Source of the DNA: Schmidtea polychroa | Lineage: Eukaryota | DNA: 64,000 bases | Direction: 5' to 3' | NCBI GenBank assembly: GCA_044892525.1 | Contig: CM097888.1 | Coordinates: 69,874,001-69,938,000, forward strand | Shown here: piece by piece, positions 10,843-37,133 of the stretch | Layout of the letters: every line of letters starts with the position of its first letter | Position numbering within the stretch: position 1 is the stretch's first letter | Notes under the pieces: generated by a model | The model's database searches: none | What the model saw: the letters and a program-made list of their open reading frames with translations, nothing else | Told to the model about the DNA's origin: nothing | Made by a program: the position numbers and the translations under genes

Positions 10843-10849
10843 AAAATTA

Positions 10850-13800: not shown

Positions 13801-14959
13801 CACAGATAGCCTCACTAAGGTTTGAACAATTCTTGACGCACAACTTACATTGATGATGGAGAAAATTTTCTTAGCAAAAACGACATTCAAAAACGATAGT
13901 GTGACACCCTCAATCACTGCGCGAATACATCAAAATTCTCCGATTCCCTTATTACATATCTTTGTTTTCAATCACTACATGACTATCAATTTTCTGCCAC
14001 CATTTACCTATAGATTTTAGTCGCACCTTCAGCAATTGGACCCGTGAAGAAGCCTTCACATTTCGGCCCAATCTAGCTGCGTGATTGAAATACCCTATGT
14101 CCACCGGTGGAGCTCCCGAAGGCACCTCACACCATGACATAGAGTATCTCAACGCCACGTTTCTCGCAAAATTGAATAGTCTCCAATAATAATTCATAAA
14201 AATTGATTCGTAAAAGATCAATAATTCTTAACGAGCAAATCATTTATTATTAAGCAAATTATTAATTTAAATAAAGCATTCTAAAATCAAACGAAAAGAA
14301 AAACCATTTTTCAAATTAAAAATATAATTAAACTATACGCATTACTTAAAAATTCAAAATAAGCAATCAAAAATCCTTATCGAATGATTGATACTAGTAT
14401 GGGCTGAGTCGAAAAGGGTACTATGTCAAATCAGTTAATGCTTGAATATCGTCTAGTTCTGTAAAAATCTCTTGAATCTTGGAATTGTCCTCGTGAGTTA
14501 TCGTGCGTTAGTTGCTGGAGTTCTGTTCTGTCGTAGAATAGATTTACCTATTGAGGTGGTTTGATTAACAGTAGTTGTTATGTTTTTAATGCCTGCTTAT
14601 ATATTAATTTTTTGTTTGCGCGGACCAATTAGAATTGAGTACCGCTTAATTTTATTAATTTAATTTATTTTCCTTGTTTTTGAGTTATTTCTTCTTATTT
14701 TCTTTATTAAAATTATGTTTTTATTTATTTTCCTTAATTTTCTTATTATTTACTATATTTTACGTTGTTTTCCGCCATTCTATTGTCCTATTTTAATTTT
14801 TTCTCATCTTTATATTTTTTGTTTTAATTCCTATTTTCTAATTATTGTTTTTCTTATGTTTTATTCTATTTTATTTGTCAATTTATTTGTTTTTATTTTT
14901 TATTTTATTTTAGTTAAGTTTGCCCTAATTTCCCAACTACCCTTCGACTCAGCCCAACA
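10850..14959 (-). repeat. Shared LTR (3' LTR of the complete copy and 5' LTR of the left copy), 4,110 bp
   Basis: Direct repeat of 37134-41243 with no differences seen on spot checks. Same TGTTG...CAACA termini. Confidence 0.9.
11417..12166 (-). CDS. LTR-encoded ORF (middle LTR copy)
   Basis: Identical to 37701-38450. Confidence 0.6.
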   Translation of the reverse strand: MLPNSKTVLRPCFSCSDKNSIIKELQAQIGKHKRKIDELEGTWFSPTQMKEAQKKLHRSEHCRDALISESRAQRSLIKEQSEALHKLYVQAAITRKIAKIPSNEAGNLFPAHHDISGGSSSPVGKPCHGCVETELSPKEPEIIFTGTSNVLPAIASTSAAPPTNPTASKPKRRQLSRAERKKKQRERVTAKQNPRSSDHPIKVINPPAAIDLASVISGRIISAAGVTWEENASEFFDLEDLLADSEWEK

Positions 14960-15192: not shown

Positions 15193-15852
15193 CTAACCAT
15201 TTGATGCTTCTGCTGACGGTTGTTGGTTGGTTTGGGTATTGGTGTTGAGATAGGTCTGATTGTTAGAATTCGGCTGGATTGGTTGGTTACTCGGGATTCG
15301 AGGTCGGAATGGGGTTGGGTTAAGATTTGTCAGTGGCACTTCTTGAGGATTTCTGTTCGAGATTACTCTTATTGATGTCGAGATTCTGCATCTATTTCTA
15401 ACTTCGTAGATCTTCATGAGTATTGGTAGACATAGGAGGAGGGTTTCTGCGATCACCACATATATGAGATAATGGGTGTCATTGATTTCGGGAGGTGTTT
15501 TTGGTTTTTCTACAAGATTTTCAAAATTCTCTTGTTGCATTTGTTGTTCCAACTGGTCGAATTGTTGAATTTGTTCGAGGATTTGTTTGTTTATCATTTT
15601 ACAAATGGGATTCTTTTTACACATTGTTTGGATGTTGTTGATGTGTGATCGGGTTGATTGAATGGTTTGGATGATATGGATTTTTACTGTCATAGGGTAT
15701 GTGCATTGGCCGGATTCTTGTTTAGGTTCTTGATTTTGATTTCGGTAATCTCGTACGATTTTCGGTTGGGCGTTTACTTGTTTGTTCTCCATCAGAATCA
15801 TCAATACCGTTATTGTTATCATCATCTCGCCTCGCATGATACTATTATACAT
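15193..15852 (-). CDS. Accessory ORF, predicted type I membrane protein
   Basis: Signal-like MMITITVLMILMENKQVNA, helical ectodomain with Cys residues, TM YLIYVVIAETLLLCLPILM, and a P/Q/N-rich tail. Confidence 0.72.
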   Translation of the reverse strand: MYNSIMRGEMMITITVLMILMENKQVNAQPKIVRDYRNQNQEPKQESGQCTYPMTVKIHIIQTIQSTRSHINNIQTMCKKNPICKMINKQILEQIQQFDQLEQQMQQENFENLVEKPKTPPEINDTHYLIYVVIAETLLLCLPILMKIYEVRNRCRISTSIRVISNRNPQEVPLTNLNPTPFRPRIPSNQPIQPNSNNQTYLNTNTQTNQQPSAEASNG

Positions 15853-15893
15853 TCATTATGGTTTATTTACAATTGGTTTTAGTGACCCCTAAT

Positions 15894-16658
15894 TTAATGA
15901 TTCTGGTTTGGGTTATTTTCGGCGATTCTCATCAGGGTGGATTCCGCTTTAATAACTCTGTGTCTTAACTCGGGCAGCATTTCCAACTGTCTGTTCTTTT
16001 CACGGGCCTCCCTTTTCATGTGCCTTATCTCCTTTTTCAGCCTTCTAATTTCTTCCCGTTTTTTGTCGAGGTTCCTTTTTAGTTCGATTTGTAGGAAATC
16101 TTGTTCGTTTTCCTGCGAAAGGTTTCGTTGTTGTTGTTGTTGTTGTTGTTTTCTCTCGATCTCTTGGTATTTGCGAATCCATTTCTTCATTTCCTCACTT
16201 TCTCGTTGTTTTTCCTCCAATTGTCGATTTAATTTATTTATAGTTATTTGGTGTTCTTTCGCCTTGGTTTTCCAATAATCCTGGATTACTTCTTCTGCCT
16301 TGAAGCTTGCCCTCTCTTGCCATAGTTCCTCTGCAATCTTTTCCCAGTTTCTTCCTCGTGTTCGTTGTTCTTGCAACCATTCATTCTTCTCTTCCGCTTC
16401 CCTCTTTATTTCTCCTAACACTTCGCACTCCTTCTTTAGTATTTTAATCATTTTTCGGTCTTCTATATATTTGTTTATTAGTCGCTCGTTTTCGTCCTTC
16501 TCTTCCCGTAACTTGGCCTTTAACGTTTGTGTTTCTGTTGTTTCTGCCTCAATCTCTCCCTCTTCTACGTCGCTCGTAATTTCTATTATTTCCTCGATTT
16601 TCATATCTGTAATATGTACAGTTAATGGTGCGCTATAGTGCGACTTATACATATACAT
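15894..16658 (-). CDS. Accessory ORF, coiled-coil protein with polyQ (likely start at ATG 16604)
   Basis: 254-codon ORF rich in E/K/R with a QQQQQQQ tract. MKIEEII is preceded by TACAG|AT. Confidence 0.72.
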   Translation of the reverse strand: MYMYKSHYSAPLTVHITDMKIEEIIEITSDVEEGEIEAETTETQTLKAKLREEKDENERLINKYIEDRKMIKILKKECEVLGEIKREAEEKNEWLQEQRTRGRNWEKIAEELWQERASFKAEEVIQDYWKTKAKEHQITINKLNRQLEEKQRESEEMKKWIRKYQEIERKQQQQQQQRNLSQENEQDFLQIELKRNLDKKREEIRRLKKEIRHMKREAREKNRQLEMLPELRHRVIKAESTLMRIAENNPNQNH

Positions 16659-16717
16659 TTATATAAAATTTTAATAGTTCGGGTTACAGTCCCTTGAATA
16701 CTTTTACAATACTTTAA

Positions 16718-16740
16718 TTTTTTTTTTTTTTTTTTTTTTT
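16718..16740 (-). other. Internal poly(A) tract (A23) downstream of an AATAAA
   Basis: T23 on the + strand. AATAAA (minus strand) at 16777-16782, just after the stop of the 351-aa ORF. Confidence 0.75.
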
Positions 16741-16787
16741 GTTTGGGATATACGTCCCGATTTTTGTCTTTATCTTTTTATTCACCC

Positions 16788-17843
16788 TTATACGAAGGTT
16801 TCCTCCTGTCCCACATAACCTTCGTCACTATCGACCGCTGGATGCAACTGTATCGCAATAGGGTCATAGGGTAGGTAATATTGGGGGATTTGAGCTCTCA
16901 ATTCATTAACTTCATCTCTTAGAGCTCGAGTGATATTCAGCTCTTCGTCGAGCAGATAAGTGAGATACCTTGTCTCTTCGTCTTTCGCCTCTACTTGTCT
17001 ATCTAAGGCCTTGATTTTCTCGTCGCCCTTCCATTTTTCAATTTCTATTTCCAAGTTTTTGATATTTTCGGTATACATTTTCCTCTCGTTTTCTAATTTT
17101 CTGTTTTTTCCCGCTAGGACCATGTTTCTTTGTTCTAACGATCCTTGTAGTCCATTAAGGTCTCTTTTCATCTCTTCGACCTGATTTACTAATTCCACAA
17201 CCCGTCCTGCTTGCTGGGTTATCATCTCTTCCATTGCAGCATTCTCGTGCTCTCTTATGTCGCATTTTATTGCCAAATGTCGTTCAAACTCCATAGCCTT
17301 CATCTGCCATGTTTGGCTTCGGGCGGCGACCTTTTTCAACCGTTTCAGTTCTTCCTTTATTATTAAATTTTCCTCCCATTTACCCTGTTCGCTCTCATAT
17401 CCGAGTCTCATGGGCAATTCTTTCATCTCTTTTTTCATTTCATTGCTTTGTCTTTTCCATTTTCTCGCTTCTGCCACTAAGTGCATCATTTTCCTTCCTT
17501 CTATTTGCTTTTCCGCTTCGCGCTTGGTGTTCTCATCGGTAAGTCTCTTTCTCGCTTCCTGCACTAGCTGCTTTAAGTAGTGGCTGTGCGCTTCTTGGCG
17601 GGTATTTTCTAGTGACGCCCATTTTGATGCTCTTTTGCATGCTTCTGCTTCCGCTCTTAAGTTGTGTATTAACCATTGGTATTGACTATTCTCATCCTCT
17701 CTAGCTTCTTCGATGTGATTTCGGGTGAGATTAGTTAGTTGGAACATTACTTTGTTCCATTTTTTGTTATGTTCTCGGGGAATTTGTGTCTTGTTGACAT
17801 TGGTTGGGACTATCGCAGTTTCGGTTAGTTTCTCTTGTGTCAT
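16788..17843 (-). CDS. Accessory ORF, 351-aa coiled-coil protein (unknown)
   Basis: Long uninterrupted ORF rich in E/K/R/L with heptad character and element-like A-rich codon bias. Confidence 0.75.
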   Translation of the reverse strand: MTQEKLTETAIVPTNVNKTQIPREHNKKWNKVMFQLTNLTRNHIEEAREDENSQYQWLIHNLRAEAEACKRASKWASLENTRQEAHSHYLKQLVQEARKRLTDENTKREAEKQIEGRKMMHLVAEARKWKRQSNEMKKEMKELPMRLGYESEQGKWEENLIIKEELKRLKKVAARSQTWQMKAMEFERHLAIKCDIREHENAAMEEMITQQAGRVVELVNQVEEMKRDLNGLQGSLEQRNMVLAGKNRKLENERKMYTENIKNLEIEIEKWKGDEKIKALDRQVEAKDEETRYLTYLLDEELNITRALRDEVNELRAQIPQYYLPYDPIAIQLHPAVDSDEGYVGQEETFV

Positions 17844-18037
17844 CTCTAAATCATAGACATCGATTAAGCTTTTTATTATGAAAAAGGAATTTATTCATTA
17901 TTTGCTGTTTCTTTGGAAATTTTCGCATCATTTTTGGGTTTACGTATTTAGGGTTTTTCATACTATTATTATATAATATTTTATTGGTTATATACACCGA
18001 TATATACAGATTATTATATACAACATTATTCGATCGT

Positions 18038-19426
18038 TTACTCCGTTCTGCCCTTCTCCTCTTTCCTTACGGTCATCTTGATATACACCGTGCCATTTCT
18101 TGCCATATCTTCTACTTTTTGTTGTAGGATGAACGTAGGTGCTCCTGTTGCTGATCCTTCTTCTTCCGTAGGTCTCTGGTAACACATTTGGTTTCCAGTT
18201 GTCTTGAAGCTTTGTTCGTGGATGTTTCGGTCATTCATTAGTGCAATATCGATTTTCGCCTGGAACGGCCACTCTATTATTTCGTCGTATTCTCCTTTAC
18301 ATAACAGAAAGAAAATCGAAAAGTGTGTGTCTAATCCGGTTCCGTCCCCGTTGGGATATATCTTCATTTTCATTTTGTACCCATTTTTCCAAGAATGGAA
18401 TGCAGGACTTGTTATTCTTGTCTCTTCTCCGGTTTTTGCTTTTCGTATTCTTTCCTTTACTCCCGTAATCTTCCATATGTAGGGTGCTGTTGGGGTTATC
18501 TCATTTAGATTTATTTCCCGTATTTTCTGATGTAGCTCCTTGGCCTGATTATTACTGATTTCTATTCGGTTTATTTGCATCTTTATGTTTGCTCGGGCTT
18601 CTTCGAACGCTTCCCTTTCTTCTAGTAGTTCTTTGACTAACACTTTCAACGATGCTATCTCTATCTCCATTTGTTTTACTTTCTCCTCGCTTTCTTGTAA
18701 CGCAGTCGACCACATTTCTGCGTGGGTTGAAGCATTTTCTACTAAATGATGTGGTAACTCCCCTCGGTGTAGTAGTTTCTGACAACCCCATTTGCCTAGT
18801 ACGCATGTCATTCTTTTCTTTTCACATTCCCTTAGATGCTGTGCCACCTTCATTATTTCCCCTTGGTTACATCCGTTTGGGCATTCCCCACTGAACTCTG
18901 CACATACTCTCTCCTCTTGGACATTGTGATGTTTGAGGGTGAGATTTTTCCACGTATCTATTTCTCCACAGTGTTCACATCTTTCTAATCTCTCCTCACA
19001 CTGCCTTTGATGCTCTTTTTCTTCGCTTGCTCGAATGGTTTTATGGCACCTTTCACACTGGCCAATTCTGTACATACATTCTCCCATATGTTGTACTACC
19101 TTCCATATTACTCCTTTCCATTCGCATGGGGCATTTTTGCATCCCAGGTTGGTGTTTAACATGTCTTTCACTGCGGCTTTATCCTCGTTAGTGTCTTCTA
19201 AACTCGATATTAGTGTCTCTTTACACACCGGGCACCTCTGTGGTCTATTCTTTATTGCTTCACTGATACATTCTTTACATACTCTGCATCCACATTGGGT
19301 TTGGTGGGGTTCTTTTAGTAACTTTTCACAGATTCCGCACATAACATGTTTGTGTATTCTGATCGTTGTAGATTTTCGGACTTGCTCGACAATCTCTCTG
19401 AACTCTTCTCTTTGTCGTTTATCCAT
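18038..19426 (-). CDS. traf: TRAF-family protein (RING, TRAF zinc fingers, coiled coil, MATH/TRAF-C), intronless, element-borne
   Basis: RING CGICEKLLKEPHQTQCGCRVCKECI...CPVC. ZnFs CKNAPCEWKG..HMGEC. MATH YIWKI..SPAFHSWKNGYKMKMKIYPNGDGTGLDTHFSIFFLLCKGEYDEIIEWPF, which resembles TRAF2/3/5. Confidence 0.93.
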   Translation of the reverse strand: MDKRQREEFREIVEQVRKSTTIRIHKHVMCGICEKLLKEPHQTQCGCRVCKECISEAIKNRPQRCPVCKETLISSLEDTNEDKAAVKDMLNTNLGCKNAPCEWKGVIWKVVQHMGECMYRIGQCERCHKTIRASEEKEHQRQCEERLERCEHCGEIDTWKNLTLKHHNVQEERVCAEFSGECPNGCNQGEIMKVAQHLRECEKKRMTCVLGKWGCQKLLHRGELPHHLVENASTHAEMWSTALQESEEKVKQMEIEIASLKVLVKELLEEREAFEEARANIKMQINRIEISNNQAKELHQKIREINLNEITPTAPYIWKITGVKERIRKAKTGEETRITSPAFHSWKNGYKMKMKIYPNGDGTGLDTHFSIFFLLCKGEYDEIIEWPFQAKIDIALMNDRNIHEQSFKTTGNQMCYQRPTEEEGSATGAPTFILQQKVEDMARNGTVYIKMTVRKEEKGRTE

Positions 19427-19511
19427 TCTATAATTATATGTACATATAGTTCTTATCGATACAGGTTCGATATTTTATTTACAGTTATTTACATTTTAAG
19501 CTAGGTTTGGT

Positions 19512-19871
19512 TTAGGGTTCGGAAGAGTCGGCTTCGTGTCCGCTCTCCTCTCTATTCATTAACCATTCCGACCAGTCTTCTATTTCTGTCTGTTCTGCTT
19601 CCTCCATCATTCTGTTTAGTTCAATTTCCTGTCTACGGCTATATTGGGTTATCCTCTCTATCTCTCTTTGCATTTGTTCGATTTTCAACCTCTGGTCTTC
19701 AATTATCTTCAAATAACTAAATCCTCTATTCATACTCTCGATTAGGTTTCTGTGCATCGTCAATCCTTGTTCTTGCAAATTGGACACTAATTGTGCTAAT
19801 ACGGCACATTGTTGCTTCCATAATTCTTCAGTTACTGTATTGTGGTTCATTTCGTTATTTCCTTGATCCAT
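19512..19871 (-). CDS. Accessory ORF, small coiled-coil protein with acidic C-terminus (function unknown)
   Basis: Open frame; the first ATG is at 19871 (MDQGNNE...), while the track start at 19895 is TTG. Heptad-like helical composition. Confidence 0.65.
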   Translation of the reverse strand: MDQGNNEMNHNTVTEELWKQQCAVLAQLVSNLQEQGLTMHRNLIESMNRGFSYLKIIEDQRLKIEQMQREIERITQYSRRQEIELNRMMEEAEQTEIEDWSEWLMNREESGHEADSSEP

Positions 19872-20164
19872 TCTTAATTTATATACACTTTTCAACTCTT
19901 ATTTAAAGTTAATTTTATTTTATGGTTCCCGTTATTGTATAATATTAATACCGCGCTTATATAAAGATATAGTACTGTTATATACATAAGATATACTTAC
20001 TTTTTACAATTATATACAGTCATATTCCTTTCTATATACGTGAGTTTGGAGGGCGCTGAGCGTTCCAGGCCTCCACCCACTGTTCCTGTTTGATAACACT
20101 TGGTCGTTTCACTCGATGTTGGAAATTTCTGATTCGGGTCATCTCTAATTCTCCGCGATGTCGT

Positions 20165-23100
20165 TTATCTTTGATTATTTTTATTGTCGCCCCCCGTTAT
20201 GATTAGGAAGGCCCCTGTTATTATTATCCCACTGATCCACATCATCTGCTTCACGCTTATATTCTCTGGTTTCTCCTTGTTCGTTAATGTTGATATCGCT
20301 TCTATACCTTTCTCGTTTCCTCTTTTGCCATTTCCTTTCATCATTTCCCGTATTCTTGCTATTTCCTCGTTCATACCCTCCTTTGCCATCTTTTGTATTT
20401 TTTCCATCTCTTCCTCCGAAACATAGTTGTCCTGAGCTTCCTCGCCGGTTTTCTTGTGCTTTCCTCCTTCGTTCTTTTCGTCGTGGTTTTTTCTTTTCTT
20501 TCCTCTTTTCCCTGGGTATCGTCGGCATTCTCTTTTTGATTCATTCCTCCAGATACAAACCGTGTATTCTTTCGGCGGCTGCTGCTGCGTCACATATTGA
20601 TGGCATCTCTCACCTGGTCCTAATCTTGAAATACAGACTTTGTGCTCTCTTCTAGGTTGGAGCTGCGTTATTACTATTTCACCACCTTTTCCTAGGTGTA
20701 CCTCTTTTCCTTTAACGTTCGTTATTCTCTTCCCGTCTCGATTTCGGTATGCTTCTTGTATTCTTACTTCTGTTATTGGTTCTGTGTCCTCATTTATCAG
20801 TACTAGTTTCTGATACGCTCTAGACATGCATCTTCCTAGTATGCACCTTTCCTTTAAGTCCCATTCTTCCTTTAAATCCCACTGCTGCTCTTGTGCTTGC
20901 TTTTTCTTTTCTTGTTTTAGTTCATCCTCTTTGCTATCTTGATTCTCCGCTTCTTTGGTTTCTTTTATCGTTCTCGTCCCTCCATGAGCTGTTACTAACT
21001 CTATCATGGTAAGCATAATTATCATTAATATCATATTTGTCTCTATTTCTTTGTTAGTGAAAGGTAGGCATACCCTCTGTTTTCCATTATTCGGTTTTTC
21101 CTCCTCTTTGGTCTTGGTTCCCGGGCTGTTTCCCTCTCTTTTCGTATCCAAATCCTTGTTTTCCGGTTTATCCTCTTCCGGTTCTCTTTTCCCTTTATCC
21201 TCTTTTCGGCCTTTTCCGTCATTGTCATCGTGTTTATCTCCCCCGCTGTCGTTTAAAATGTCGTCCTCGACATTTATATCGTTCAATAATCTGCGATATG
21301 CTGTTAGCACTCTGTTTCTTGCTAATTTTGCTTCGAATTCAAACTCTTTTCTACCCGTTGCAGCATGTCTCTTTCTATTCCATTCTTTAACTAACTCTCT
21401 CAATTGCATACGACGATGTTTCCCAATTCGTTGTTGCTCGTTCTGATTTTGCGTGAATTTTAGGTCTTCTCTATTTAATACTATTAAAATAATTTTAGGC
21501 GTCCCCCCTTTAGTTAGGGTATTCTTTACCATCGCATTTTCTCCGTTTTCGTAGAATTCGTTTACATTTATCGCATATTTATTATTTTGTGGTACCTTCC
21601 ATGTTAATAATAATTTCATTGCTTCTAGATTTTTCCGTACCGTATTCCATTGAAATTGAGATGTGTTTTTGCACATATTCTCAACTTCTTCTTTTGTCGC
21701 ATTTTTGCAAATAAATCTGATCATTTCTAAGTTTGGCTGTATGGTTGCCCAGTCCAATGTGGAGTTCCCTTCGTTTGATTTTTCGTCTAGTCTCGATCCT
21801 GATTGATGTAAGATGTGGAGTGTTTTTGGGTGTATTTTCGTTATAGCTGCATACATCATGGCGGTTTCACCTTGTTCATTTTTCGTGTTGGTTTCCTCAC
21901 CCATCTCCCCAAGGATTCTCATGATCGTTATTGCTCTATTCTCTTTTGCAGCTAGTATTGCTTGTTGTAGAGGTGTTCTGGAATCCTTTGTTACCATCGT
22001 AAATGCTCGAGGCAAGAAGGTTTTGATTTTCCCGATATCTAAACCCGTGGTTTGATCTCTTGCGTATGTGTGTACGGCTTTTATTATTTTGGACAATATT
22101 ATTTCGTCTGGCAGCTCTAGCATTTCCTCAAAGAACACTTCTTTTGCTTTGCGTATTATTGCCTCTTGATCTATACTCATTGATTTGGTTTCGATGACGT
22201 TGTTTGTGACCGTTTGGTTCGTTGTTGACTTTGATTCCCTTGATTTCTCATACCTTATTTTCGTTTTCTTTCCGTTTGGATTATTGATTCGTTCCTCTGC
22301 TGTAAGTATTTGGATAATATCCAGGTAATTCTCGCGGATGTTATTCATTGTGTCCATCATATATAACACACTTACCGTTTCCCAATATTTATTTCGTACT
22401 TGGTTAGTAAATTGGAATATTGATTTTTCGAATGTGTCGATTCGCTTTTTTGCTAACTGTTCATCTTTATGATTTGTGAATTTTATCCCTCGTTCTAGTA
22501 ATTGATTCGGAATTTCGAATAAATGATGTCCTTTCATAGCTTCTCTCATCAGCGTGTTCTCTCCTCTCGTGAACGCTTCGTTTACGTTGATCATATAATC
22601 GTTTTGAATTGGATTTCTCCATGTAATTAATATTCCGGTAATTGTTGTCAGTTTCTCTTTGATCGCTGTTAATAATCCATCATACATGTTTCCGACTTCT
22701 CGATTGTCCTCATATGATAGTAGTTCCATCAACGACGTGAACGCCTCGGTACTTTTCCCTTCGATAGCATGATGTAGAGCGTTTTTCCGCTCGTGGTCTT
22801 GTGTAGTTATTTTCGATCCAGTATCGAGTAATGCGGTTATAATGTCTTTTGTTTTGCCTCTGTTTGCGGCTATCATTAATGGTGTGTAACCTTGGTTGTT
22901 TGTTTGTTCTGTTGATCGCTTGCAGTCGTGAAATGCTTCTATTGTTTCTAGTATTTGCTCGTTGTTACCTACTTTCATGAGTTTGTGTAATGGTGTGTCT
23001 CCGTAATGATCTGTTATTGTAAATAATATTGGCCATTGGCTTTTGACTACTCGCAATAATGGGTGTGTCCTTTCTCTATTTGCATAGTTCTCGATCATCG

Positions 23101-26100
23101 TCAATAATCCTCCTAATATTTCGAAATCTAATCGATCTTTTGCCCATCCAGGTATTTTAATTTTTACCTCTTTTACAATCTTTTCCGCTTCTGATGGTTG
23201 GATACCCAATCGTCCGGTGATCGGTTCTGCGAGTTGTTGCATCATGTTCATTCTGTAGGTTTGCGAACGTGTGGTTAATGTACGGCCCTCTGGTTGACTA
23301 GTGGCTGTTTTTGGAATTGATTTGCATCGTGCTACGTTTACGTATATTGGCCTGGTAAATGGGTTATTTACCAATTTCACTCTTACATTGGTTTCGCCTA
23401 CGAATAAGATCTCATATGGTCCTTTTCCGTTGCGTTGTAACTTTTTTGTGGTTCCTGGAATTAATTCCGGGGTTTCTATCATTACCCAATCACCTGTTTG
23501 AAACGTATGTTGCTTCACGTTTTTCTTTCGATCGTGTAAATCTTTATAACTTTCCTGGTAGAACTTGATATTTAATCCCGCAGTTTCCCAAATCTCCTGC
23601 ATTCTTTCCTTGAATTTCGTAACATAATCGTCGATCTCCATATACTGCGATATCGGTGGTTGGTATTCCAGGTCCATTGGCATATTACATTCTCTTCCGT
23701 ACATTAATTTGAATGGGCTCATTTTCGTTGATGCGTGAATCGACATTCTGTACGCCATAAGACATAGGTTTATATATTCGTCCCAATCTCGTTGGTGACG
23801 GTCAACGTAGTTTGATAACATTTGTATAAGTGTTCCATTAAATCTTTCCGTCATCCCATTGGTTTGGGGGTGGTATGGAGATGTTCTTAGTTTTGCTATT
23901 TTGAAGTAATTTGTTACTTCGCTCATTATCTCACTCATAAAATTAGTTCCCTGATCGGTTAATATCTGTTTTGGTGTTCCATATCGGCAACATATCTCTT
24001 CTACCAGAATTTTTGCGATTGTTTTAGCTTTTTGGTCTGGCATCGCGAATGCTTCTGGAAATTTCGTAAGAAAGTCGGTAATCACTAAAATATAAACGTT
24101 TCCTCTATCCGATTCCGGTAATGGACCAACTACGTCCATTGATATCATCGTCATCGGCTCTATTGGTACGGGCATTGGCGTTAAAGGCGCTTTCCATTTT
24201 GATCCAGTATTTTTCCTGGTCGCACAAGTTAGGCAATTTTTTACCCATTCGGTTACATCTTCAGTTAACGTAGGCCAAAAATATTTCTGTTTCATTCTTG
24301 CTAACGTCTTTTTCGATGACATATGTCCTCCCAATCTCCCATCGTGATATTGCGTTAGTAACTCTTTTCGTCGGTTTTCCGGTATACACATTAATCGTTT
24401 TTCCCCATCCATTATCAGCAACCAATCTTTCTCTATAATATATCGGTGTCGGTGTTTATCCATATGTTCTTTTAATTTTTGGTCTTTCGCATATACATCT
24501 GTCTTTCCGGTTTTTACATAATCGATAATTTGTTTTAATTCCGCGTCCTCTTGTTGGTTCTTTCGCAATTGACAGAAATCTAGGTCTTCTGCTACCATTA
24601 GGCATATGCGTTGCATTTCTGAATCCACCAAATCTGGAAAAATAAATCTTGACATACAATCGGCGTTGGCATTTGCTCTTCCCGCTTTGAATTTTATAAA
24701 TGGGGAGTATTCTTGCAATTGCATGGCCCATCTCATCAGTCTACTGGACGCTTCTTTATGTTGCCCTAACCACACTAATGGTTGATGATCTGTGGTTATA
24801 CATATCTCATGTCCCCATAGTAAATATCGGAAGTGTTTGATAGCTTGTATTATAGCCAATGCTTCTCGTTCTGTTACCGAATAGTTCTTTTCGTGCTTTT
24901 TGAATGTTCGACTGTAATACCCGATTACTCTCTCTTTTCCTTCATCGTCTAATTGTCCCAGAATCGCGCCTGCCGCGTACCCGCTTGCATCCGTTGCCAA
25001 TAGAAATGGCTTCTTAAAATCTGGGTGTACTAGGATAGGTGCTTCGATTAGTTTATCTCTCAGCGTTTCAAACGCCTCTTGTTGTTCCTTCCCCCAAATG
25101 AACGAAATGTCCTTCTTTACTAATTCCTGGATTGGTTTTGCAATTTCTGCATAATTTTTTATAAATTTGCGATAGTATCCGCATAATCCTAGAAATTCCT
25201 GAACTTGGGTGACAGTTTTCGGTGCTGGACATGTTTTTATTTTCTCAATGTTTCTTGGATCTGGCTCCTTTCCTTTAGCTGACACTATGTGTCCTAAAAA
25301 CGTGACTTTTTCCTTTGCCCAATCGCATTTTGATGGTTTGAGTTTGAGTTTCCACTGTCTTAATCTAATAAATACGTTTCGGATATCTTCCAGATGTTGT
25401 TCAAATGTCGCTGAATAGATTAGTAAATCATCAATATATACCATACATTGTTTGATTCCATGAGTGACAAAGTTCATACACCGTTGAAATGATGCTGGTG
25501 CGTTGGTCAGTCCGAATAGCATTTTCCTGAATTGATATAGATCTCGTCCCAACGTGAAAGCTGTTTTCTCTTTGTCCTCATCTTTGACTTTAATCTGCCA
25601 GTATCCACTTTTTAGATCTAAAGAAGTAAAATATGCTGCCCCTTGCAACATCAATAACATCTCATTGATGTCCGGCAATGGATAGGTATCTCTCTTGGTT
25701 ACTGCGTTTAACTTCCGATAATCGATACAGAATCGTTGGGTGCCATCTTTCTTTTTTACCATGACCACTGGGAATTGCCAGGGTGAGCAACTTGGTTCGA
25801 TTACTTTTGCGTCTAGCATCTTTTGTACTTCTGCTTCGGCTATTTCTTTTTGCATTTCTGCTAGCTTGTATGGTCTTAATGCAATTGGAGTTTCATCTAT
25901 GAGGGGTATTGCATGTAGGGTAACATCGCATGTACCCAAATCTAAATCTGAGATGGCGAATATATCTTTATATTCTACCAACAATCGGTGCAATTTTTTC
26001 TTTTCATCATTCGTCAACAACATACTATCTATTGTCCATAATTCATCATCTTTGATCATCTCGTTGGTCACTTTCGGTAATTCTATGTCCATCATTGGGG

Positions 26101-28870: not shown

Positions 28871-29175
28871 TCCCTTGCTTGCGTTCTGATGAAATCTGAT
28901 TCTTGATATACATGGTAAGTAACTTTTGTTCTTACTATGTCTAATTTGTTGGGTGATGCTTGTCTACATTCTTCTATGTCTCTCAATGAGTATTTATCTC
29001 TCATTATCATATTATCACAATCGTAGATGGTAAAACCCGTTGCTCCACTGGTGCACAACATCCATATCATCATAGTCATCATTAACGAATTTATTGATGC
29101 TTTTCGGCTTGTTGGGTCTTTCATGGGTAGTTCCCATTCTAGTTCATTTAGCAACTTCTTCAATCTAACTTGCAT
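28732..29175 (-). CDS. env: N-terminus of the envelope glycoprotein (signal peptide plus start of ectodomain); joins the large ORF by a -1 shift near 28852-28858
   Basis: Hydrophobic leader SLMMTMMIWMLCTSGATG, then FTIYDC...IEEC...HVYQ...ECVVSKK. This continues as (G)TPYYCGQYS in the -1 frame, as expected for chuvirus-type G N-termini. Confidence 0.78.
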   Translation of the reverse strand: MQVRLKKLLNELEWELPMKDPTSRKASINSLMMTMMIWMLCTSGATGFTIYDCDNMIMRDKYSLRDIEECRQASPNKLDIVRTKVTYHVYQESDFIRTQARECVVSKKVLHITVDNIRIRLLYYLVWIKKSYPYNERTVKSYLEPER

Positions 29176-32100
29176 CGACCTTTCTTGCTCATTTTTTCGT
29201 GGTGCTTGTATAAGTCTTTTCCACGAATAATATGTGGTTCAATAGTATTCTCTATGATTGAAACGGTCATTTCCACATGATTTGCAAACTGTTTATTTGG
29301 TATTTTCCTCGCAGCTAGTCCCATCAAATTAAACATCAAATACGTGATTACCACTAGGTGATGTTCGTCATCATTTGCATTCGTCGTGAGCTGTTCAATC
29401 ACTCTCTTTGTTTCATCCCAGTCCGTTTTGGTGGTTTTCGTTTTCTCTTTGATTAACTTTGGAATTATCCCCGAAACGATGTGCCATAATTGTCTAGCTT
29501 CCGTACTGGCTACTTTCCGTTGCCACAAACGTCTAAGTTGTGGGTTTGTTATTATTAACATATCTTTTAACAATTCTCGTATCCATTTTTCTCCTCTTTC
29601 GATCGTTGGTTGGGCTTCCTTTAGATCCCATACTATTTTATCCAATTTTTCTAATCGAACTTGCCCTTGTTCTTGCTTTAATTGTTCTTTGGTTTTAAAC
29701 TCAGACTTTTCTCCTTGTTTCTTAGGTCTTCCTTTTGCCCGTTTTTCCATCATCGTTCCGGCTTCTCTGGTATTTTCGTAATTCGGATTTCTTTCGTTAT
29801 CCGTCCTGGGTAATGAGCTATCGTTATTTCTTAGCCACTCATTCCATTCGTCTATTATTTTATCGGTTTGACCTTCTGGTGTTACTTTCGTTGGTTCTCT
29901 TTGCTTCTGGAATTGTTCATCCGTTTCGGTTTCCGTAGTATTGTCGATGATTTCTTTGATGTTCAGTTTCGTTGGTTGTTGATAACTCGTTGATGGCTGG
30001 TTATTAGTCCACATTTCGGCTCCTGTCGGCCATCTCACTAATAGCGGTGATCTTTCTCCTGGTTCATCGTCACTATCTTCCAGGATTATCTCTTCAACTT
30101 CTTCAGTTTCATTAGATTTACTTGGTGCTTTGTTCGGACTTGGAGTACTCAAACTGCCTTTTGTTGGTTTAGTAATTTTACTTTTCCTTTTTAACGGTTT
30201 CCCCAACGTTTCTGCCATTGTTAATACATTTGTCTCTTCCAATCTCATGGGTGTTATTCCGACGTCTGCATTATCGTCTAGTGATTTTCCGAACAGTTGC
30301 AGATGGAATGGAGTTTCATATGCTAATTTCTTTTTTAATTCTCTAATCTTTGTTGTTGGATGCACCTCTAGTTCCTCGATGCTCTTGTCCGGATACTTGA
30401 TTCGGATGTGATACCTCTCCTGAGTGTCTTGTGCCCATTCCTGATTTCTCCATTTTCGAATAATTTGTTCTAGCTGTTCTGGATACCATTCATTATATTG
30501 CCGGTATTCCTCTATTGCCTTTGCCATTCCTCTCAGATTGTGGATGTTTTCTGATGTTTTTAAGATGATGTTAGCCAACGCTACTACTTGGCGTTTTTGA
30601 TTTTTCGCTCCCATTGCTAAGATATCGCCTAATTGTTTATATCTTTCTTTCTCTTCTCGTTCTCTTGCTTCTATTGCTTCCTCGCCGTCCATATCAGCAT
30701 ATTCTCGTTCCTTTTTCCTCATTGCATGAATATGTCTCGCTTCATTTTCGCTTTCTGATGTGACATCCGTCTCGCTTTCGTCATCCGATGTCTGTTCCCT
30801 TTCTTCTTCTTCATATTCTGGAGGTTCCTCTTCTTCTTCCTCCGATTCACTTTCTGTCTCACCAATGTCTGTTTCTACGAAGATTCCTTTCCGGATTTCC
30901 CATTCCTTAGTTTCTGCATTCCACATTCTTTCCCATGGGGTTCGTCTGCAGGATCTGGTACTTAGTTTCGTGATTTTTCCTTGTAGTTCCTTTTCTTTTA
31001 ACCATTGTTGGTGGATTTTAATTATTTCCGTAGATTTTTGATATAACGTTTTCATCCGGTCTCGTATTTCTTTTTGATAGGTTACATCTCTTGTTCGAAA
31101 TTCATCCATTGGTACTATCCTGATTATCTGATGATTGTCCCACATACCCATTTCGCTTAACGAGGTGTCGTCCTCCGCTCGTAATATTATTTTATCGTAC
31201 ATCATGACTACATCATCCACCATACCATCACTACTTTCGCTACGTAACTTTTCCGTTATCTCTTGGTTTATTTTTGATACCAAGTCATCTACTGTACTCT
31301 GATTGCTCATTTTTATTCGTCGTTTTTCTTCGTTCGGTAACCATATGGTTATTTCCAACCTCTGTGGCTGGGTTTCTTTTAACCTTCCATATTTGTGGAT
31401 TAAATTTATGGTTCTCCAATCACTCATCCGGAGCATTTCTGTATCTCGCAATCGGCTCATTAGTTCGTACATGGCTGGGGCTCGTCTGGTGATGAGTAAA
31501 TCCCAGTTGTCTTCCACTTGTGCTTGAATTTGTTTGATCAGCTTATCCAGGTTTCGTCTCAGAGTACATTGTTTTATTTGTTCTAATTTCAATTTGATGT
31601 TAAAATCATATTCTGCCTTGGCATCTTTAGCCCAATCGTACAGGTTGGCTGGTTGTTTTTCTTTATGCAACTTCAGTATTTGCGTTTCTCCTGGCCATAT
31701 TAGTGCATCTACTAAGTGCATATCTGGTTTGATCTGTTCTCCTTGGTATTGATACAGATATTCTTTCTTTCTCGAACTTCCCAAATGTTCTCGTATCCAA
31801 TCGAAAAGTTCGTCGGTGACTGTATTTTTTATCCACATTCTTTCAAGTCCTCTGCTCGTTCCGATTTTTATGACATACCGCGTGGTATCTGCCTGCTTCA
31901 TTTTTTCCATATACTTTTTTATAATTGATTTTTCCTCGTTTGGTATTAAATCTTTCTCGTTTCTTTCCAATTTCATCACTTTTTGCACGAATCGCCTGAA
32001 TGGTATTACGTCGATGAACTCTTGGTTCCTCACTACTACTGGGAGTATTTCAGCTACTTGTTTTATCGCTTCCTCCCTCTCTTTTCTCAACTTTATTTCG

Positions 32101-33875
32101 ATATCTTCGTCTTCACTTTCACTGGTTATCTCGCTTTCGCTTTCTTCCTCTTTGATTTCCCCTTTTGGAGGTTCGCTTATTTCATTCAGCTGTAGTATTT
32201 CTCCACCCAAACTACTTACATAGTCTTCTTCTTCGTCTGACGATGCTACATCTTTTGTCCTTTTCATCATATTGATTTGCAAGTTTCTCATCCTTGGTAC
32301 TCTCTTTAGTTTCTTTCTTTCGAATATTGTTGTTTCTTCTGATTCCAATTCTTGTAGCATTTGGTGGTTTAGTTGACTGGTTTGTTCCTTGCTCTTGTTA
32401 TTTTCATCTTCTGTCTCGGCTTTCGCTTTATTATGTTCTTTTTCGATTTTATCTTTTATCTTTTTCCAGAATATTTTCTGAATTCTCTGGTTTCCTTTTA
32501 AAATCGTGGTTGAATTCTCTGTTTTCATTTCCGTTGTTGTTTCTGTTACCTTTTCTGGTTCAGTCATGGGTGCTACCCTTGGGTTTTTCCCGCAATTGTA
32601 GCAATACTGGCTTTTCATGTCTTTTACTAACTTCATCATATTAATTCGCAATGGTTGTTCTTGTCGTTGTTGGTTGCGTTCTTGTTTTATCCTCTCTTCC
32701 TCGGCCTGTAGTCTTTGCCATTCTTGTACATGTTGATGCACTTCATAATTGTTGAGATTTTCGGTACTCCTCATCATACGTATGTTCTGGGTTTGTTGTG
32801 GTGCTGGTTCTTGTCTTGGTCTCATCATTTGTTGCATCATCTGTTTCATCTGCGAGATTTCCTGCATAACGTTCATTTGTTTTCCTTCGCTAGGGTTACT
32901 TTGTCGTTGCGGATTCGCCATATAATTATTATTTCGCTGTGGTGGTCGTTGTTGTTGGCCCCTTTCTCGGCAATCTCTGGAGATGTGACCTGGCTGACCA
33001 CAGTTAAAACAACCTCTCAATTGGCATACATTTTCGGTATGTCCACGCCGTCCGCAACGATTACAATTTGAATTTCTATAACAATCTCTGTCCCAGTGTC
33101 CTGGTTTACCGCATGTTCGGCACTGCTTGTTATCGTTCATATTTCGTCGATTACTAAAATTGTTCTCATTATTCAGGTTGTTACGATTACCATTATTCCC
33201 ATTTGATCGTCCTTGTGGTGGTTTGAAAATTTGGTGCGCTCCTGGTATAAATTGATTCATTTTCGGTTCTTGATTGTTGTTATCTCCGTTATCCGCTTTC
33301 GCTATTGCTGTCGCTATCCTCCCATCTTCTTGCATAATATTCATTTGGGCTGGAAGGTGGAGCTCGCATCTTGTAGCCCAATCTATGGCTTCCTCTAATG
33401 TTTTGCACATTTGACAACCTACTGAGGCTCTTACTTCTTCTCGGCGTAATCCCTCTATGAAATAACCGATCAGATTTTCTTCGGGTAATTTTCCATTCAT
33501 TGCTTTCTTCGCTAATCTCCGCAATTCACTGGCATATAATGTTATCGATTCGTTCGCTCTTTGTTTCCTATTTGCTAGTTCGCCCAACGCCTGGTTGATT
33601 GGCTTACTGGCTCCGAAGGTTTTCTTCAGGAATGTTTTGATATCTTCCCACTTTTCTAATTTCGTATCTCTCTCTTTAGCTTCTAAATATACTTCTAATG
33701 CGCTATCGCACAAAAACAACGGCATCCTTTTACTAATTGCTTCGGGTGTCCATCCACACACCGTGATATAAACTTCAAAATTAGTTATGAACGTTGCTAG
33801 CTTGTTTGCATTTCCGTTGAACGGTTCTCCTCTGAACTTCTCTTTATACTCGTCGGTTTTTACGATATTCGTCAT
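29160..33875 (-). CDS. gag: Extended Gag polyprotein (1,571 aa): capsid, 3 CCHC zinc knuckles, long extension with 3 ubiquitin-like domains
   Basis: Ty3-type capsid motifs (FNGNANKLATFITNFE; KQRANESITLYASELRRLA; FIEGL). Knuckles CRTCGKPGHWDRDC, CNRCGRRGHTENVC and CFNCGQPGHISRDC. Confidence 0.92.
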   Translation of the reverse strand: MTNIVKTDEYKEKFRGEPFNGNANKLATFITNFEVYITVCGWTPEAISKRMPLFLCDSALEVYLEAKERDTKLEKWEDIKTFLKKTFGASKPINQALGELANRKQRANESITLYASELRRLAKKAMNGKLPEENLIGYFIEGLRREEVRASVGCQMCKTLEEAIDWATRCELHLPAQMNIMQEDGRIATAIAKADNGDNNNQEPKMNQFIPGAHQIFKPPQGRSNGNNGNRNNLNNENNFSNRRNMNDNKQCRTCGKPGHWDRDCYRNSNCNRCGRRGHTENVCQLRGCFNCGQPGHISRDCRERGQQQRPPQRNNNYMANPQRQSNPSEGKQMNVMQEISQMKQMMQQMMRPRQEPAPQQTQNIRMMRSTENLNNYEVHQHVQEWQRLQAEEERIKQERNQQRQEQPLRINMMKLVKDMKSQYCYNCGKNPRVAPMTEPEKVTETTTEMKTENSTTILKGNQRIQKIFWKKIKDKIEKEHNKAKAETEDENNKSKEQTSQLNHQMLQELESEETTIFERKKLKRVPRMRNLQINMMKRTKDVASSDEEEDYVSSLGGEILQLNEISEPPKGEIKEEESESEITSESEDEDIEIKLRKEREEAIKQVAEILPVVVRNQEFIDVIPFRRFVQKVMKLERNEKDLIPNEEKSIIKKYMEKMKQADTTRYVIKIGTSRGLERMWIKNTVTDELFDWIREHLGSSRKKEYLYQYQGEQIKPDMHLVDALIWPGETQILKLHKEKQPANLYDWAKDAKAEYDFNIKLKLEQIKQCTLRRNLDKLIKQIQAQVEDNWDLLITRRAPAMYELMSRLRDTEMLRMSDWRTINLIHKYGRLKETQPQRLEITIWLPNEEKRRIKMSNQSTVDDLVSKINQEITEKLRSESSDGMVDDVVMMYDKIILRAEDDTSLSEMGMWDNHQIIRIVPMDEFRTRDVTYQKEIRDRMKTLYQKSTEIIKIHQQWLKEKELQGKITKLSTRSCRRTPWERMWNAETKEWEIRKGIFVETDIGETESESEEEEEEPPEYEEEEREQTSDDESETDVTSESENEARHIHAMRKKEREYADMDGEEAIEAREREEKERYKQLGDILAMGAKNQKRQVVALANIILKTSENIHNLRGMAKAIEEYRQYNEWYPEQLEQIIRKWRNQEWAQDTQERYHIRIKYPDKSIEELEVHPTTKIRELKKKLAYETPFHLQLFGKSLDDNADVGITPMRLEETNVLTMAETLGKPLKRKSKITKPTKGSLSTPSPNKAPSKSNETEEVEEIILEDSDDEPGERSPLLVRWPTGAEMWTNNQPSTSYQQPTKLNIKEIIDNTTETETDEQFQKQREPTKVTPEGQTDKIIDEWNEWLRNNDSSLPRTDNERNPNYENTREAGTMMEKRAKGRPKKQGEKSEFKTKEQLKQEQGQVRLEKLDKIVWDLKEAQPTIERGEKWIRELLKDMLIITNPQLRRLWQRKVASTEARQLWHIVSGIIPKLIKEKTKTTKTDWDETKRVIEQLTTNANDDEHHLVVITYLMFNLMGLAARKIPNKQFANHVEMTVSIIENTIEPHIIRGKDLYKHHEKMSKKGRCKLD

Positions 33876-35239
33876 GATTGGTGTTCTAGATTCGTCTGTT
33901 TCTTTTAAATTGTCTAACGATGTGACTAAACTTTGGGCTGATAATTCCTCGGTTGACGTTGCTAAACTATTAGTGATGTCGGACAGACTTTCTCTGCTTC
34001 GAGATCGACTAGGGGTGTATCCGAGATTTTCTTGATCAAATATAGGTACTTGATTGGTTCTTCTTGATCCTTGTGATATTCCTCTTTGCTGTTTAATAGA
34101 TCGTCCTCTTTTGAGTTGTTGTAATTCGTCTCCTGAAAATAATACGTCTCCTGGCTTACTTGAAGATCTAAGATTGGGTTTATCCGTGATTCCTTTCTTA
34201 CGCTTCTTGGTAATTAGCGGCTATTGAATTGGACGAGTTCGGTTCTGATTGTGTTTCCTTCGATAAATATTCTGTATGAATCTGCTACTGTGATTCTGAG
34301 GAGATTCACTAGTCCTTGACAGATGGCTGCTAATATTATGAGGTTGAATATATCGATGATTCGTTCGAAGTTGGAGATGTCGCTATCTGTATCTTCTTCC
34401 GTTCTGGAGTCTTCCGGTTGCTGTGTCTCTCGGTGCGGGTTCTGAATGGATTTATTCTTGGTCGATTGTCGATTTCTTCGAATTCCTTTTGTGCAGGTTC
34501 TGGATTGTCTTGGTTGACTGGATTGGTTTGATATCTAAAATTAAAAAATGATCTCGTGTTGCATTTGCTTACACGACTTCATCATTCTTTCAACAACGTT
34601 CGAACACAGACACCTTTTAGGTTCTGTTTATGCTTCCCCTATTGTTTATGCAATTACTTCCGCGGGTTATAATTTCCCATCAGCCCGAATTTTTCGTCGA
34701 TTTTAAATTATCTATATGGGGTAGTAACAATTATCTATAAAGTCGTAATAATTATCTATTCGTTATCAATTATAGTAAAAATAGGTCGTTGTCGGTCTCT
34801 GCTTATTACTCCCCTTCGTTTTCCTATTCCTTTTGCGCTGTTGTCGCTATTTTACTTTTCATATTTACTATTATTACACTCGGTTCGACTCTGGGACCAA
34901 TAAAATGCATTTTCCCGGTTTAACCAAAAAAAATATTCCGTAGAGTTTCTCTACTTCACTGGGATCCCTTTAATTAGTTGGTTACTTTCCTCTTTACTCA
35001 TTATCATCGTTTCGCCTATTCTTTATTTTCCATTATCTCTTTAATTCGGTTCCTTCTTCCCTTTCCTTTTTCATTATAATCTTATTATCTTTTCCACGAG
35101 CTCGTTTATTTCCTCTCTAAACTCAAATTTTCGTAATTACATTCAATTTGTTTCTAGCTGGCTTTAATATTCCCTTTCTCTATTAATTCAGATATTAGCT
35201 CATTGTAGCTTAACTGCTATCTCTCGCTTTTCTAGGCCT

Positions 35240-35764
35240 TTACGACTGGCTGGCACTATTCAACAGCTCAATCTTCTTCCTCCTGACCGGTTGGACTATT
35301 CGACAACTCGATCTTACGACTGGCTGGCACTATTCAACAGCTCAATCTTCCTCCTTCTGATCGGTTGGACTATTCGACAACTCGATCTTACGACTGGCTG
35401 GCACTATTCCACAGCTCAATCTTCCTCCTTCTGATCGGTTGGACTATTCGACAACTCGATCTTACGACTGGCTGGCACTATTCAACAGCTCAATCTTCCT
35501 CCTTCTGATCGGTTGGACTATTCGACAACTCGATCTTACGACTGGCTGGCACTATTCCACAGCTCAATCTTCCTCCTTCTGATCGGTTGGACTATTCGAC
35601 AACTCGATCTTACGACTGGCTGGCACTATTCAACAGCTCAATCTTCCTCCTTCTGATCGGTTGGACTATTCGACAACTCGATCTTACTATCTCCGAACTG
35701 GCTGGACTTTTCACAGCTCAGTTTTCGTTTTCCTTGACCGGCTGGACTATTTACAGCTCGGCTT
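35240..35764. repeat. 74-bp tandem repeat in the element leader (6 full units plus 1 degenerate)
   Basis: Copy of 8956-9480. Confidence 0.92.
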
Positions 35765-36324
35765 TAACATTCTTTACTCTGCATGCTTCTACTTCTCTCT
35801 TTCTTCTTTTACTCAAGATTACCATTTTCTCTGTCTATTTTTAATTTGTTGACTTAATCTTTACCGCTCGGAAGTGTGTCCCCTTTCCCCCCTTGCTCAA
35901 AACGCACGACGATCGCGATGATCCATTTCTACATTGGCATGGTGATCAGTCATGCCGTAGAAACTTCTCATCATTTGCGATGGTACCCCGCCCTACGCTC
36001 CTCACTTAGGTTGATCGGTTATCCCCTCCCAATTGGTTTTATCGTATGATAGAACGTACCGCCCTAAGGTGGCTCGGTTTGTACCCTTACAGCCTATATT
36101 GGGACTAATTCCACGTTATTTCGGTTTTCTTTTCGTTTGATTCCAAAACAAAGTTATAAAATAAAATTAAAAGCCATAAATTACTCAGTTCACAACAAAA
36201 ATTTATTCGTCATAGAAATAAAAATTAAAACTTTAATAAAATTTCACACAACAATTACATTTATTCTCATTCAATCGTCAGTATCAATTTGATGTTCATA
36301 GATGTTATTGTATCTGTAACAGTT

Positions 36325-36810
36325 TTATTCACCATAGTAAACCATATGAGTTTCTTTTATCTCATGCCTACATATCGTACATCGTTTTAAATCGTTCACA
36401 CATTCTTCGCAGTGACTGAGGTGTCCACACGGCAAAAACAGTACGCGAATAGGACGAAGTTTACAAGCGCGACAAGTTCGTAGTAGAGTCAGTTTTTCTT
36501 GTATTTTCCGCTCGATTGTATCTGATATGGTATTTAGTGGATCTTTTATACGTTGATAATCAAGATTTAATGCTGGGTGGTTCAATCTCTCTTGATACCA
36601 TTGATACACGGTTTCCGGGTTTACCTTCCCATCTGGGTGACTTAGTCCTGTGGCTAATAACATGTGGTTGGGGACGACTGGTGTTTGCCCGATTGCTTGA
36701 AGTAGTATGATGTTAATTCTTTCTCTTTTTTGTGTCAGCGTTTTAAGGGAGTCATTCTCGATGTTTATGAAGTTGATTAGTTGTTGTATCTGGTCTACGA
36801 ATTCCGTCAT
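36325..36810 (-). CDS. Leader ORF with C-terminal IAP/Mdm2-type C3HC4 RING
   Basis: CRACKLRPIRVLFLPCGHLSHCEECVNDLKRCTICRHEIKETHMVY at the extreme C-terminus. Located between the PBS and gag. Confidence 0.85.
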   Translation of the reverse strand: MTEFVDQIQQLINFINIENDSLKTLTQKRERINIILLQAIGQTPVVPNHMLLATGLSHPDGKVNPETVYQWYQERLNHPALNLDYQRIKDPLNTISDTIERKIQEKLTLLRTCRACKLRPIRVLFLPCGHLSHCEECVNDLKRCTICRHEIKETHMVYYGE

Positions 36811-37126: not shown

Positions 37127-37133
37127 AAAATTA

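Follow-up and report, generated by a model that had tools for sequence, protein, structure and literature searches.

The stretch of DNA described here, hereafter the window, comprises 64,000 nucleotides of Schmidtea polychroa (assembly GCA_044892525.1, contig CM097888.1, positions 69,874,001 to 69,938,000) and contains a giant long terminal repeat (LTR) retroelement of the Ty3/gypsy type. One unit with two LTRs measures 30,394 bp, of which 22,174 bp form the internal part, and all open reading frames (ORFs) of the element lie on the minus strand within one LTR element, as judged from the ORF list and a Pfam scan of 12 ORFs of the window (Table 1). The element encodes a polyprotein with an envelope (env) glycoprotein and, within and beside it, cargo modules of cell-death and ubiquitin type, every one of which is maintained by purifying selection. 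It is almost certainly a Ty3/gypsy LTR element of Burro-like kind, with env, from a dugesiid planarian, and its family is sister to the Burro1/GYPSM1 layout. An earlier note, made from the sequence alone, had proposed an env-bearing giant retroelement with such cargo and had pointed to Burro for comparison. The env assignment to Monjiviricetes and the ratios of nonsynonymous to synonymous substitution (dN/dS) bear out the proposal, and the architecture agrees with the description of Burro in the available text of PMC6431247.

Table 1. Features of the element in the window (aa, amino acids; family B is the second 30-kb family of the genome, described in the text)
Feature	Positions	Strand	Remarks
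5' LTR	37134..41243	-	4,110 bp, TGTTG...CAACA
261-codon ORF within LTR	37701..38486	-	weak homolog in LTR of sister family B, 27% identity, E 2e-7
Internal part	37133-14960	-	between 5' LTR and middle LTR
Primer-binding site, which we take to be tRNA-Pro-like	37109..37126	-	sequence
Leader ORF, 161 aa, helical N-terminus and cIAP-type RING	36325..36810	-	zf-C3HC4_3 E 8.5e-12; dN/dS 0.10
Six 74-bp tandem repeats in leader	35240..35687	.	repeat scan
Polyprotein 5' part: Retrotrans_gag, three CCHC knuckles, ubiquitin-like segments, Bcl-2-fold domain	29160..34220	-	ends at frame break of window copy
Segment 1, ubiquitin-like by pattern only	31647..31877	-	conserved, dN/dS 0.02
Segment 2, probably ubiquitin-like, weak support	31095..31358	-	Pfam Ubiquitin_4 E 0.053; dN/dS 0.07
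Segment 3, ubiquitin-fold domain, no C-terminal di-glycine	30201..30419	-	Pfam E 0.003; dN/dS 0.05
Bcl-2-fold domain, before env	29200..29612	-	structure match; dN/dS 0.03; first frame break at its C-terminal end
Env, Monjiviricetes-type fusion glycoprotein, between Bcl-2 and protease	27160..29100	-	PF24664 E 6e-57; second frame break early in it
Protease, reverse transcriptase, RNase H, integrase, Ty3/gypsy order	23300..26698	-	Pfam
Ankyrin module 1, 3' of integrase in polyprotein	22514..23071	-	Pfam; dN/dS 0.06
Ankyrin module 2	21404..22006	-	Pfam; dN/dS 0.08; single module in sister family B
Polyprotein tail: signal-peptide-like stretch, cysteine-bearing middle, terminal hydrophobic anchor	20165..21046	-	dN/dS 0.10
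119-aa ORF	19512..19871	-	homolog in sister family B, 29%, E 1e-11; dN/dS 0.14
Full-length TRAF: RING, zinc fingers, coiled coil, MATH in order	18038..19426	-	Pfam, PDB; dN/dS 0.12
Coiled-coil-like ORF 1	16788..17843	-	homolog in sister family B; dN/dS 0.07
Coiled-coil-like ORF 2	15894..16658	-	homolog in sister family B; dN/dS 0.08
219-aa type I membrane ORF, most variable cargo gene	15193..15852	-	signal-peptide-like start, one transmembrane segment; dN/dS 0.32
Middle LTR, common to both tandem units	10850..14959	-	sequence repeat comparison
Second tandem unit, runs on past window edge	1..10849	-	extra stop in gag at 5219

The Gag and Pol regions form one polyprotein, since about 51 of the 108 scored reverse transcriptase (RT) matches of a genome search (hand count) lie in one 4,732-codon frame, and the reading frame is continuous from the Bcl-2 region into env in 18 of the 20 copies fetched. 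The window copy is broken near the C-terminal end of the Bcl-2 domain and again early in env, and both frame breaks are specific to this insertion, not to the family. Three CCHC knuckles can be read from the sequence, two of which are scored by Pfam. The best PDB match of the RT and RNase H (RH) region is Ty3 Gag-Pol (E 7e-86). A spacer of 140 aa between protease (PR) and RT, in which a dUTPase-like region was looked for, gave no Pfam match at E 0.5. An I/M/V-x-x-M motif, a pattern fitted by eye and afterwards, recurs on both sides of the protease, at the border of RH and integrase (IN) and at the end of IN; the protease of the element would probably cut the polyprotein into separate proteins.

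Three ubiquitin-like domains had been claimed for Gag, and of these the third stands. Its predicted model (VIA Z 10.0, root-mean-square deviation 1.9, 73 aligned) reaches Foldseek target template-modelling scores of 0.70-0.77 against single chains of ubiquitin size, and the segment has the ubiquitin fold. The second segment is weakly supported, with a ubiquitin profile score of 18.1 that lies narrowly above the best of 40 shuffles (16.3), and the first is unsupported, scoring 12.3 where the best of its shuffles scored 13.3. A profile of segments 1 and 2 alone found no ubiquitin match better than E 0.41, while a joint profile of all three does retrieve ubiquitin; the model of the 901-residue Gag was too poor (mean predicted confidence, pLDDT, of 42) for judging these two segments. 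The di-glycine end is absent from all three, so they would be integral domains of the polyprotein and not conjugatable tags.

Two parts of the polyprotein had been missed in the earlier note, the Bcl-2-fold domain before env and, where the polyprotein ends, another module of signal peptide and transmembrane segment. The Bcl-2-fold domain was modelled from a sister copy of 94% identity with a 7-row alignment (pLDDT 70), and this model aligns to Bfl-1 with Z 11.9 (root-mean-square deviation 3.0, 128 aligned). Bcl-2-fold chains are the top 34 of 50 rows, the first unrelated row having Z 6.0. The window copy's own model gives the fold at Z 9.4, and the corresponding domain of a related 12.5-kb family, family C, is recognised by Pfam as Bcl-2 (E 3e-5). 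The polyprotein tail has no family match and no usable ESM Atlas match; its FN3-like look is an impression by eye only. In both 30-kb families the polyprotein closes with a stretch resembling a signal peptide, followed by a region with cysteines and a transmembrane segment (in the sister family, C-terminus of L043:3-5345). The two ankyrin modules proposed earlier are confirmed (Ank_2 E 1.6e-17 and 7.2e-9) and located after the integrase. The 60 best of their 175 PDB ankyrin matches are generic ankyrins only and include no IkB chain.

Further cargo is encoded by separate ORFs. The leader ORF has its best PDB matches in the RING domains of cIAP2 and cIAP1 (E 1.6e-11) and carries its IAP-type RING at the C-terminus, as had been claimed. 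However, none of the 12 ORFs scanned with Pfam contains a BIR domain, so the product is not an IAP. A homolog of this ORF is encoded in sister family B. The 119-aa ORF belongs to no Pfam family. The claim of a full TRAF is upheld, with RING and MATH recognised by Pfam: the MATH domain matches the PDB MATH domains of TRAF1, TRAF2 and TRAF3 (E 3e-27 to 2e-26) and the N-terminal part matches the RING-zinc-finger part of TRAF6. The fourth ligand of the TRAF RING is Cys for His in 19 of 19 copies. The serine triad and the K-x-Y-x-N-G-D patch have established roles in TRAF proteins; here the patch is retained, but QMC or QIA stands in place of the triad in the 11 copies read for this pattern, so the ligand is probably not a standard TNFR motif. 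A word-based homolog search with the element TRAF gave no match.

The last ORF had been described as a receptor-like type I membrane protein. Its signal-peptide-like start and single transmembrane segment make a type I topology plausible, but the receptor likeness is not borne out, there being no Pfam family match and no cysteine-rich TNFR repeats in the ectodomain. This ectodomain of 98 aa has 3 conserved cysteines, and the ORF gave no usable ESM Atlas match (best 0.85). N168 and E171 of the tail are kept in at least 90% of 22 variants, the tail being otherwise variable, and a P-x-E is found in 15 of the 22; these residues resemble the core of a TRAF-binding motif. A complex prediction of MATH with this tail, run without alignments, scored 0.06 and speaks neither for nor against binding. 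Six frameshifts and two stops were first counted in the membrane ORF, and translation showed the differences to be confined to the tail. The ORF is uninterrupted in 18 of 18 copies from the signal peptide through the ectodomain to the transmembrane segment.

The genome was searched with protein queries. Of 13,760 candidates for RT, 108 were scored, at 98-100% identity; for TRAF, 89 of 1,911 candidates were scored, 88 of them without a stop. The RING ORF has 144 of 150 scored matches without a stop (hand count), in identity groups near 100, 82 and 77%, and the membrane ORF has 150 of 424 matches scored, at 46-100% identity. The scored lists of TRAF, RING ORF and membrane ORF favour intact copies. 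The element family has been recently active and is present in many copies. Each cargo module is found in 18-20 of 20 copies, which were selected through their RT among the top entries of the 108 matches and in part so as to span the RING groups; the possibility that the cargo is missing from most copies, raised by the earlier note, is thereby answered in the negative.

Values of dN/dS were calculated by the Nei-Gojobori method for pairs whose dS reached 0.10 or more, copies with frameshifts or stops being excluded (0-8 per module). Against 0.02 for the integrase and 0.03 for the capsid, the cargo shows 0.02-0.14 between sublineages and the membrane ORF 0.27-0.32 (0.30 in the 20-copy set, 0.32 with 22 variants, 5 of 26 fetched loci being excluded for fewer than 150 codons before stop or end). 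The 95% intervals stay below 0.5 for the most distant pairs. Near-identical pairs have higher ratios (0.01-0.85, the maximum for MATH), as drift after insertion predicts. Purifying selection is shown to maintain every cargo module, and the neutral evolution considered in the earlier note does not apply. Identity to the window differs among modules within the same copy, which points to recombination between sublineages, and single modules were swapped or lost on their own, both between sublineages and between families. One sequencing run only presumed to be RNA gave contigs over 30 of 30 bins, and two others over 26 and 13; DNA was not excluded in them and they were not used. Genome searches for Rel and for TNFR repeats matched nothing, and their controls were likewise unmatched, which makes these searches uninformative.

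Other families of the same genome were reached through searches for MATH, BIR and Bcl-2. Sister family B, known from two copies (L041-L049), shares the gene order from the LTR ORF to the coiled-coil ORFs, an RT region 85% identical, and homologs of the leader RING ORF, the 119-aa ORF, TRAF and both coiled-coil ORFs, the orthologous ORFs standing in the same order at about 30% protein identity. In contrast to the window element, it has a MATH domain inside its 4,791-codon polyprotein, a 392-aa BIR-RING gene after its TRAF, a single ankyrin module, and a last membrane ORF without sequence match to the window element. This layout is the one given for Burro1/GYPSM1 in the accessible part of PMC6431247. 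The TRAF of family B is directly followed by the BIR-RING gene (L043:6003-8782, L047:6538-9317), and as a candidate TRAF-IAP pair these two genes surpass the window element.

Family C has about 12.5 kb per unit and, in a single frame of about 3,050 codons, encodes Gag, a lone ubiquitin-like segment, Bcl-2, env and pol (L061-L062, L065-L067); it is a minimal Burro relative without the 3' cargo cluster. An extra ORF of 722 codons (L062:5700-7865) looks DEDDh exonuclease-like by eye and has no Pfam or NCBIfam match. A further relative, P0001 (2,099 aa), has Gag, a ubiquitin-like segment, an env 39% identical and two protease domains. It was the only env relative from a word-based search and shows the env-before-protease layout in another source. 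Bcl-2-like matches of 152-180 codons are also repeated elsewhere in the genome beside an ATPase/helicase-like ORF (L063, L064, L068), possibly as another mobile family with Bcl-2 cargo.

In a MATH tree built from a quick search (118 rows), four element domains and two other proteins group apart from ten host-type TRAFs with a support of 87 and long branches, a pattern that would fit a single old capture. Short branches (support 98) join a host TRAF (L051) to Dugesia japonica TRAF2-like A, by which the host is placed with the dugesiid planarians. Among the 150 best MATH matches, the lower two thirds fall mostly in repeated 487- or 4,791-codon frames. The host-type TRAFs include several encoded by one exon, with frames of 454-476 codons.

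The window insertion consists of two units in tandem that share the middle LTR, the third LTR lying beyond the window. Positions 1-14959 recur at 26285-41243 with 99.95% identity (7 mismatches). The three LTRs of the tandem are mutually identical and CTAC, a 4-bp target duplication, is found at both of its outer sides; the insertion is therefore very young. Further copies stand in tandem at a spacing of about 26.2 kb (C4:46256226/46282407, C2:177699256/177725468), so shared-LTR tandems recur in the family. The ORF within the LTR belongs to no family in a domain-family search. The AT-rich flank of the element contains a probable host gene exon at 54383-55060, which we take by eye to be LIM-domain-binding-like, and a 387-codon ORF at 61952-63115 without family match.

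What the cargo does for the element is most likely, in our moderately confident view, to keep the host cell alive and quiet during replication, because a Bcl-2 fold, a TRAF and a RING are combined in it. The Bcl-2-fold domain would block mitochondrial apoptosis, and the TRAF and the BIR-less RING may disturb host TRAF/IAP ubiquitin signalling towards stress kinases, acting as decoys or as re-targeted ligases. The cargo would be an accumulation of pro-survival modules acting separately, rather than a TNFR-NF-kB circuit built anew. In planarians, cell death increases when host TRAF is knocked down, according to the available part of PMC7586133. Several points weigh against this pro-survival role. 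A Bcl-2 fold may be pro- or anti-apoptotic, and the poxviral proteins A52, B14 and A46, which have the fold and no role in apoptosis, are among the structure matches of the domain. NWGR, the BH1 motif of Bcl-2 proteins, is not retained in it. The BIR-RING, the clearest anti-apoptotic cargo of family B, was lost from the window family or never present there. The evidence of selection is tempered as well, as sampling from the top of the RT list favours young copies, the pairs compared for dN/dS lack independence, and the dS of the RING ORF approaches saturation.

A clearly less probable reading, yet one to be taken seriously, is that most of the cargo serves the element's own cycle: particle assembly, trafficking and budding, the shielding of its proteins against degradation, and cell entry. 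The ubiquitin-like, Bcl-2 and ankyrin parts lie inside the Gag-Pol polyprotein and would be packaged along with it, the block of ubiquitin-like segment, Bcl-2 and env is already present in family C without the 3' cluster, and both membrane modules and both coiled-coil ORFs lack any immune signature. However, TRAF, IAP-type RING, Bcl-2 and the BIR-RING of family B all indicate control of cell death, and the death of planarian cells upon loss of host TRAF also speaks for such control.

We regard as improbable the reading favoured by the earlier note, a coordinated TNFR/TRAF/cIAP/IkB module in which the membrane ORF would be a receptor mimic and the ankyrins would be IkB mimics shutting down NF-kB. 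A full TRAF and a cIAP-type RING are indeed present, TRAF and membrane ORF stand in one 3' cluster, and the conserved N168, E171 and P-x-E of the tail fit a TRAF-binding core. But cIAPs bind TRAF2 through BIR1, and in a window family without BIR the link from RING to TRAF is weakly founded. So is the circuit as a whole, given the altered TRAF pocket, an ectodomain without cysteine-rich repeats, and ankyrins without IkB likeness among their best matches; the modules have moreover been swapped or lost independently between sublineages and families. For Schmidtea mediterranea, PMC13563047 reports, in its accessible portion, seven divergent RHD factors, a point in favour of such a module, but no clear NF-kB homolog, and places TRAFs downstream of TBK1.

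About equally doubtful is a private receptor-adaptor pair, in which the N-P-x-E tail of the membrane ORF would recruit the element's own TRAF, its pocket changed to fit, and give an LMP1-like survival signal. The single hint of it in the sequence is the conserved N168/E171. If true, it would be the first such receptor-TRAF circuit in an LTR element found in the literature, wired into planarian stress pathways. That the cargo is captured host DNA carried neutrally is very improbable and already largely refuted, for the raised ratios of near-identical pairs, which would suit it, are set against those between sublineages (0.02-0.32, with the intervals given above) and against the conserved order of orthologous ORFs in family B.

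For Burro, a part of the cargo in apoptosis and ubiquitination has so far been a printed hypothesis without tests. New here are the selection found on every cargo module, the presence of the cargo in 18-20 of 20 copies, and a series of three related families that shows stepwise gain, movement and loss of cargo, from the 12.5-kb family with ubiquitin-like and Bcl-2 parts to the two 30-kb families with TRAF and RING, with or without BIR-RING. Manipulation of host cell survival becomes a question testable one protein at a time. MATH domains are expanded in planarians (PMC6109357, available text), and many of the intact TRAF/MATH frames in this genome belong to elements; they can make the reported planarian TRAF expansion look larger than it is and can confound RNA interference (RNAi).

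The closest known systems are Burro1/GYPSM1 and Burro-2 to -4 of Schmidtea mediterranea and a Burro-like element of Dugesia tigrina, compared here by their description in the available text of PMC6431247 and not by sequence, no named Burro sequence having come up among the homologs retrieved. Burro is given there as more than 30 kb long, with a 4,873-aa polyprotein and MATH_TRAF_C, BIR, ankyrin, Smc, Bcl-2, ubiquitin/SUMO-like and dUTPase-like parts, and its env stands in frame between gag and pol and matches mononegaviral glycoproteins. The accessory ORFs may, by the same account, instead be subdomains of the polyprotein, and a figure legend marks tandem repeats. The window element shares the size above 30 kb, a polyprotein near 4,800 aa, three Gag knuckles, ubiquitin-like and Bcl-2 parts, a mononegaviral-type env in frame before PR-RT-RH-IN, ankyrin, MATH/TRAF-C and coiled-coil (Smc-like) parts, tandem repeats, long LTRs and a dugesiid host. 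It differs in having no BIR, two ankyrin modules, and its MATH outside the polyprotein, as part of a full TRAF gene that follows pol (in D. tigrina it lies upstream); the RING-only leader ORF and the membrane ORFs are absent from the account as far as its accessible text goes. With neither BIR nor polyprotein MATH, it is not Burro1/GYPSM1 in the narrow sense, though Burro-2 to -4 may share its layout. The kind of element, most of its cargo and the apoptosis/ubiquitin hypothesis are nevertheless already published for Burro: a provirus and a tinkering with apoptosis and ubiquitination were proposed there (PMC6431247), and the architecture, whose novelty the earlier note had left to be judged, is largely in print. 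BURRO1 RNA is found in differentiated cells upon smedwi-2 RNAi (PMC8532177, in its available part). No other paper on Burro cargo was found in the literature, of which subscription papers and supplements may hold more.

Anakin, with a chuvirus env, and the errantiviruses are likewise LTR elements with a captured viral fusion glycoprotein. Anakin belongs to BEL/Pao, and the env of errantiviruses is a separate ORF of baculovirus-F type; to our knowledge, neither is known for such cargo. The env of Anakin is of the same broad type as that of the window element (PMC12440569, as far as the accessible text describes it). From large DNA viruses the element differs in that it has no BIR and so no IAP, and in that its ankyrins are parts of a polyprotein, with no IkB chain among their 60 best PDB matches. 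The counter-defence genes of those viruses include baculovirus IAPs, polydnavirus vankyrins and viral Bcl-2. The element shares with them RING and ankyrin domains and a Bcl-2 fold that matches A179L of African swine fever virus and BHRF1 of Epstein-Barr virus at Z 10.7-10.9.

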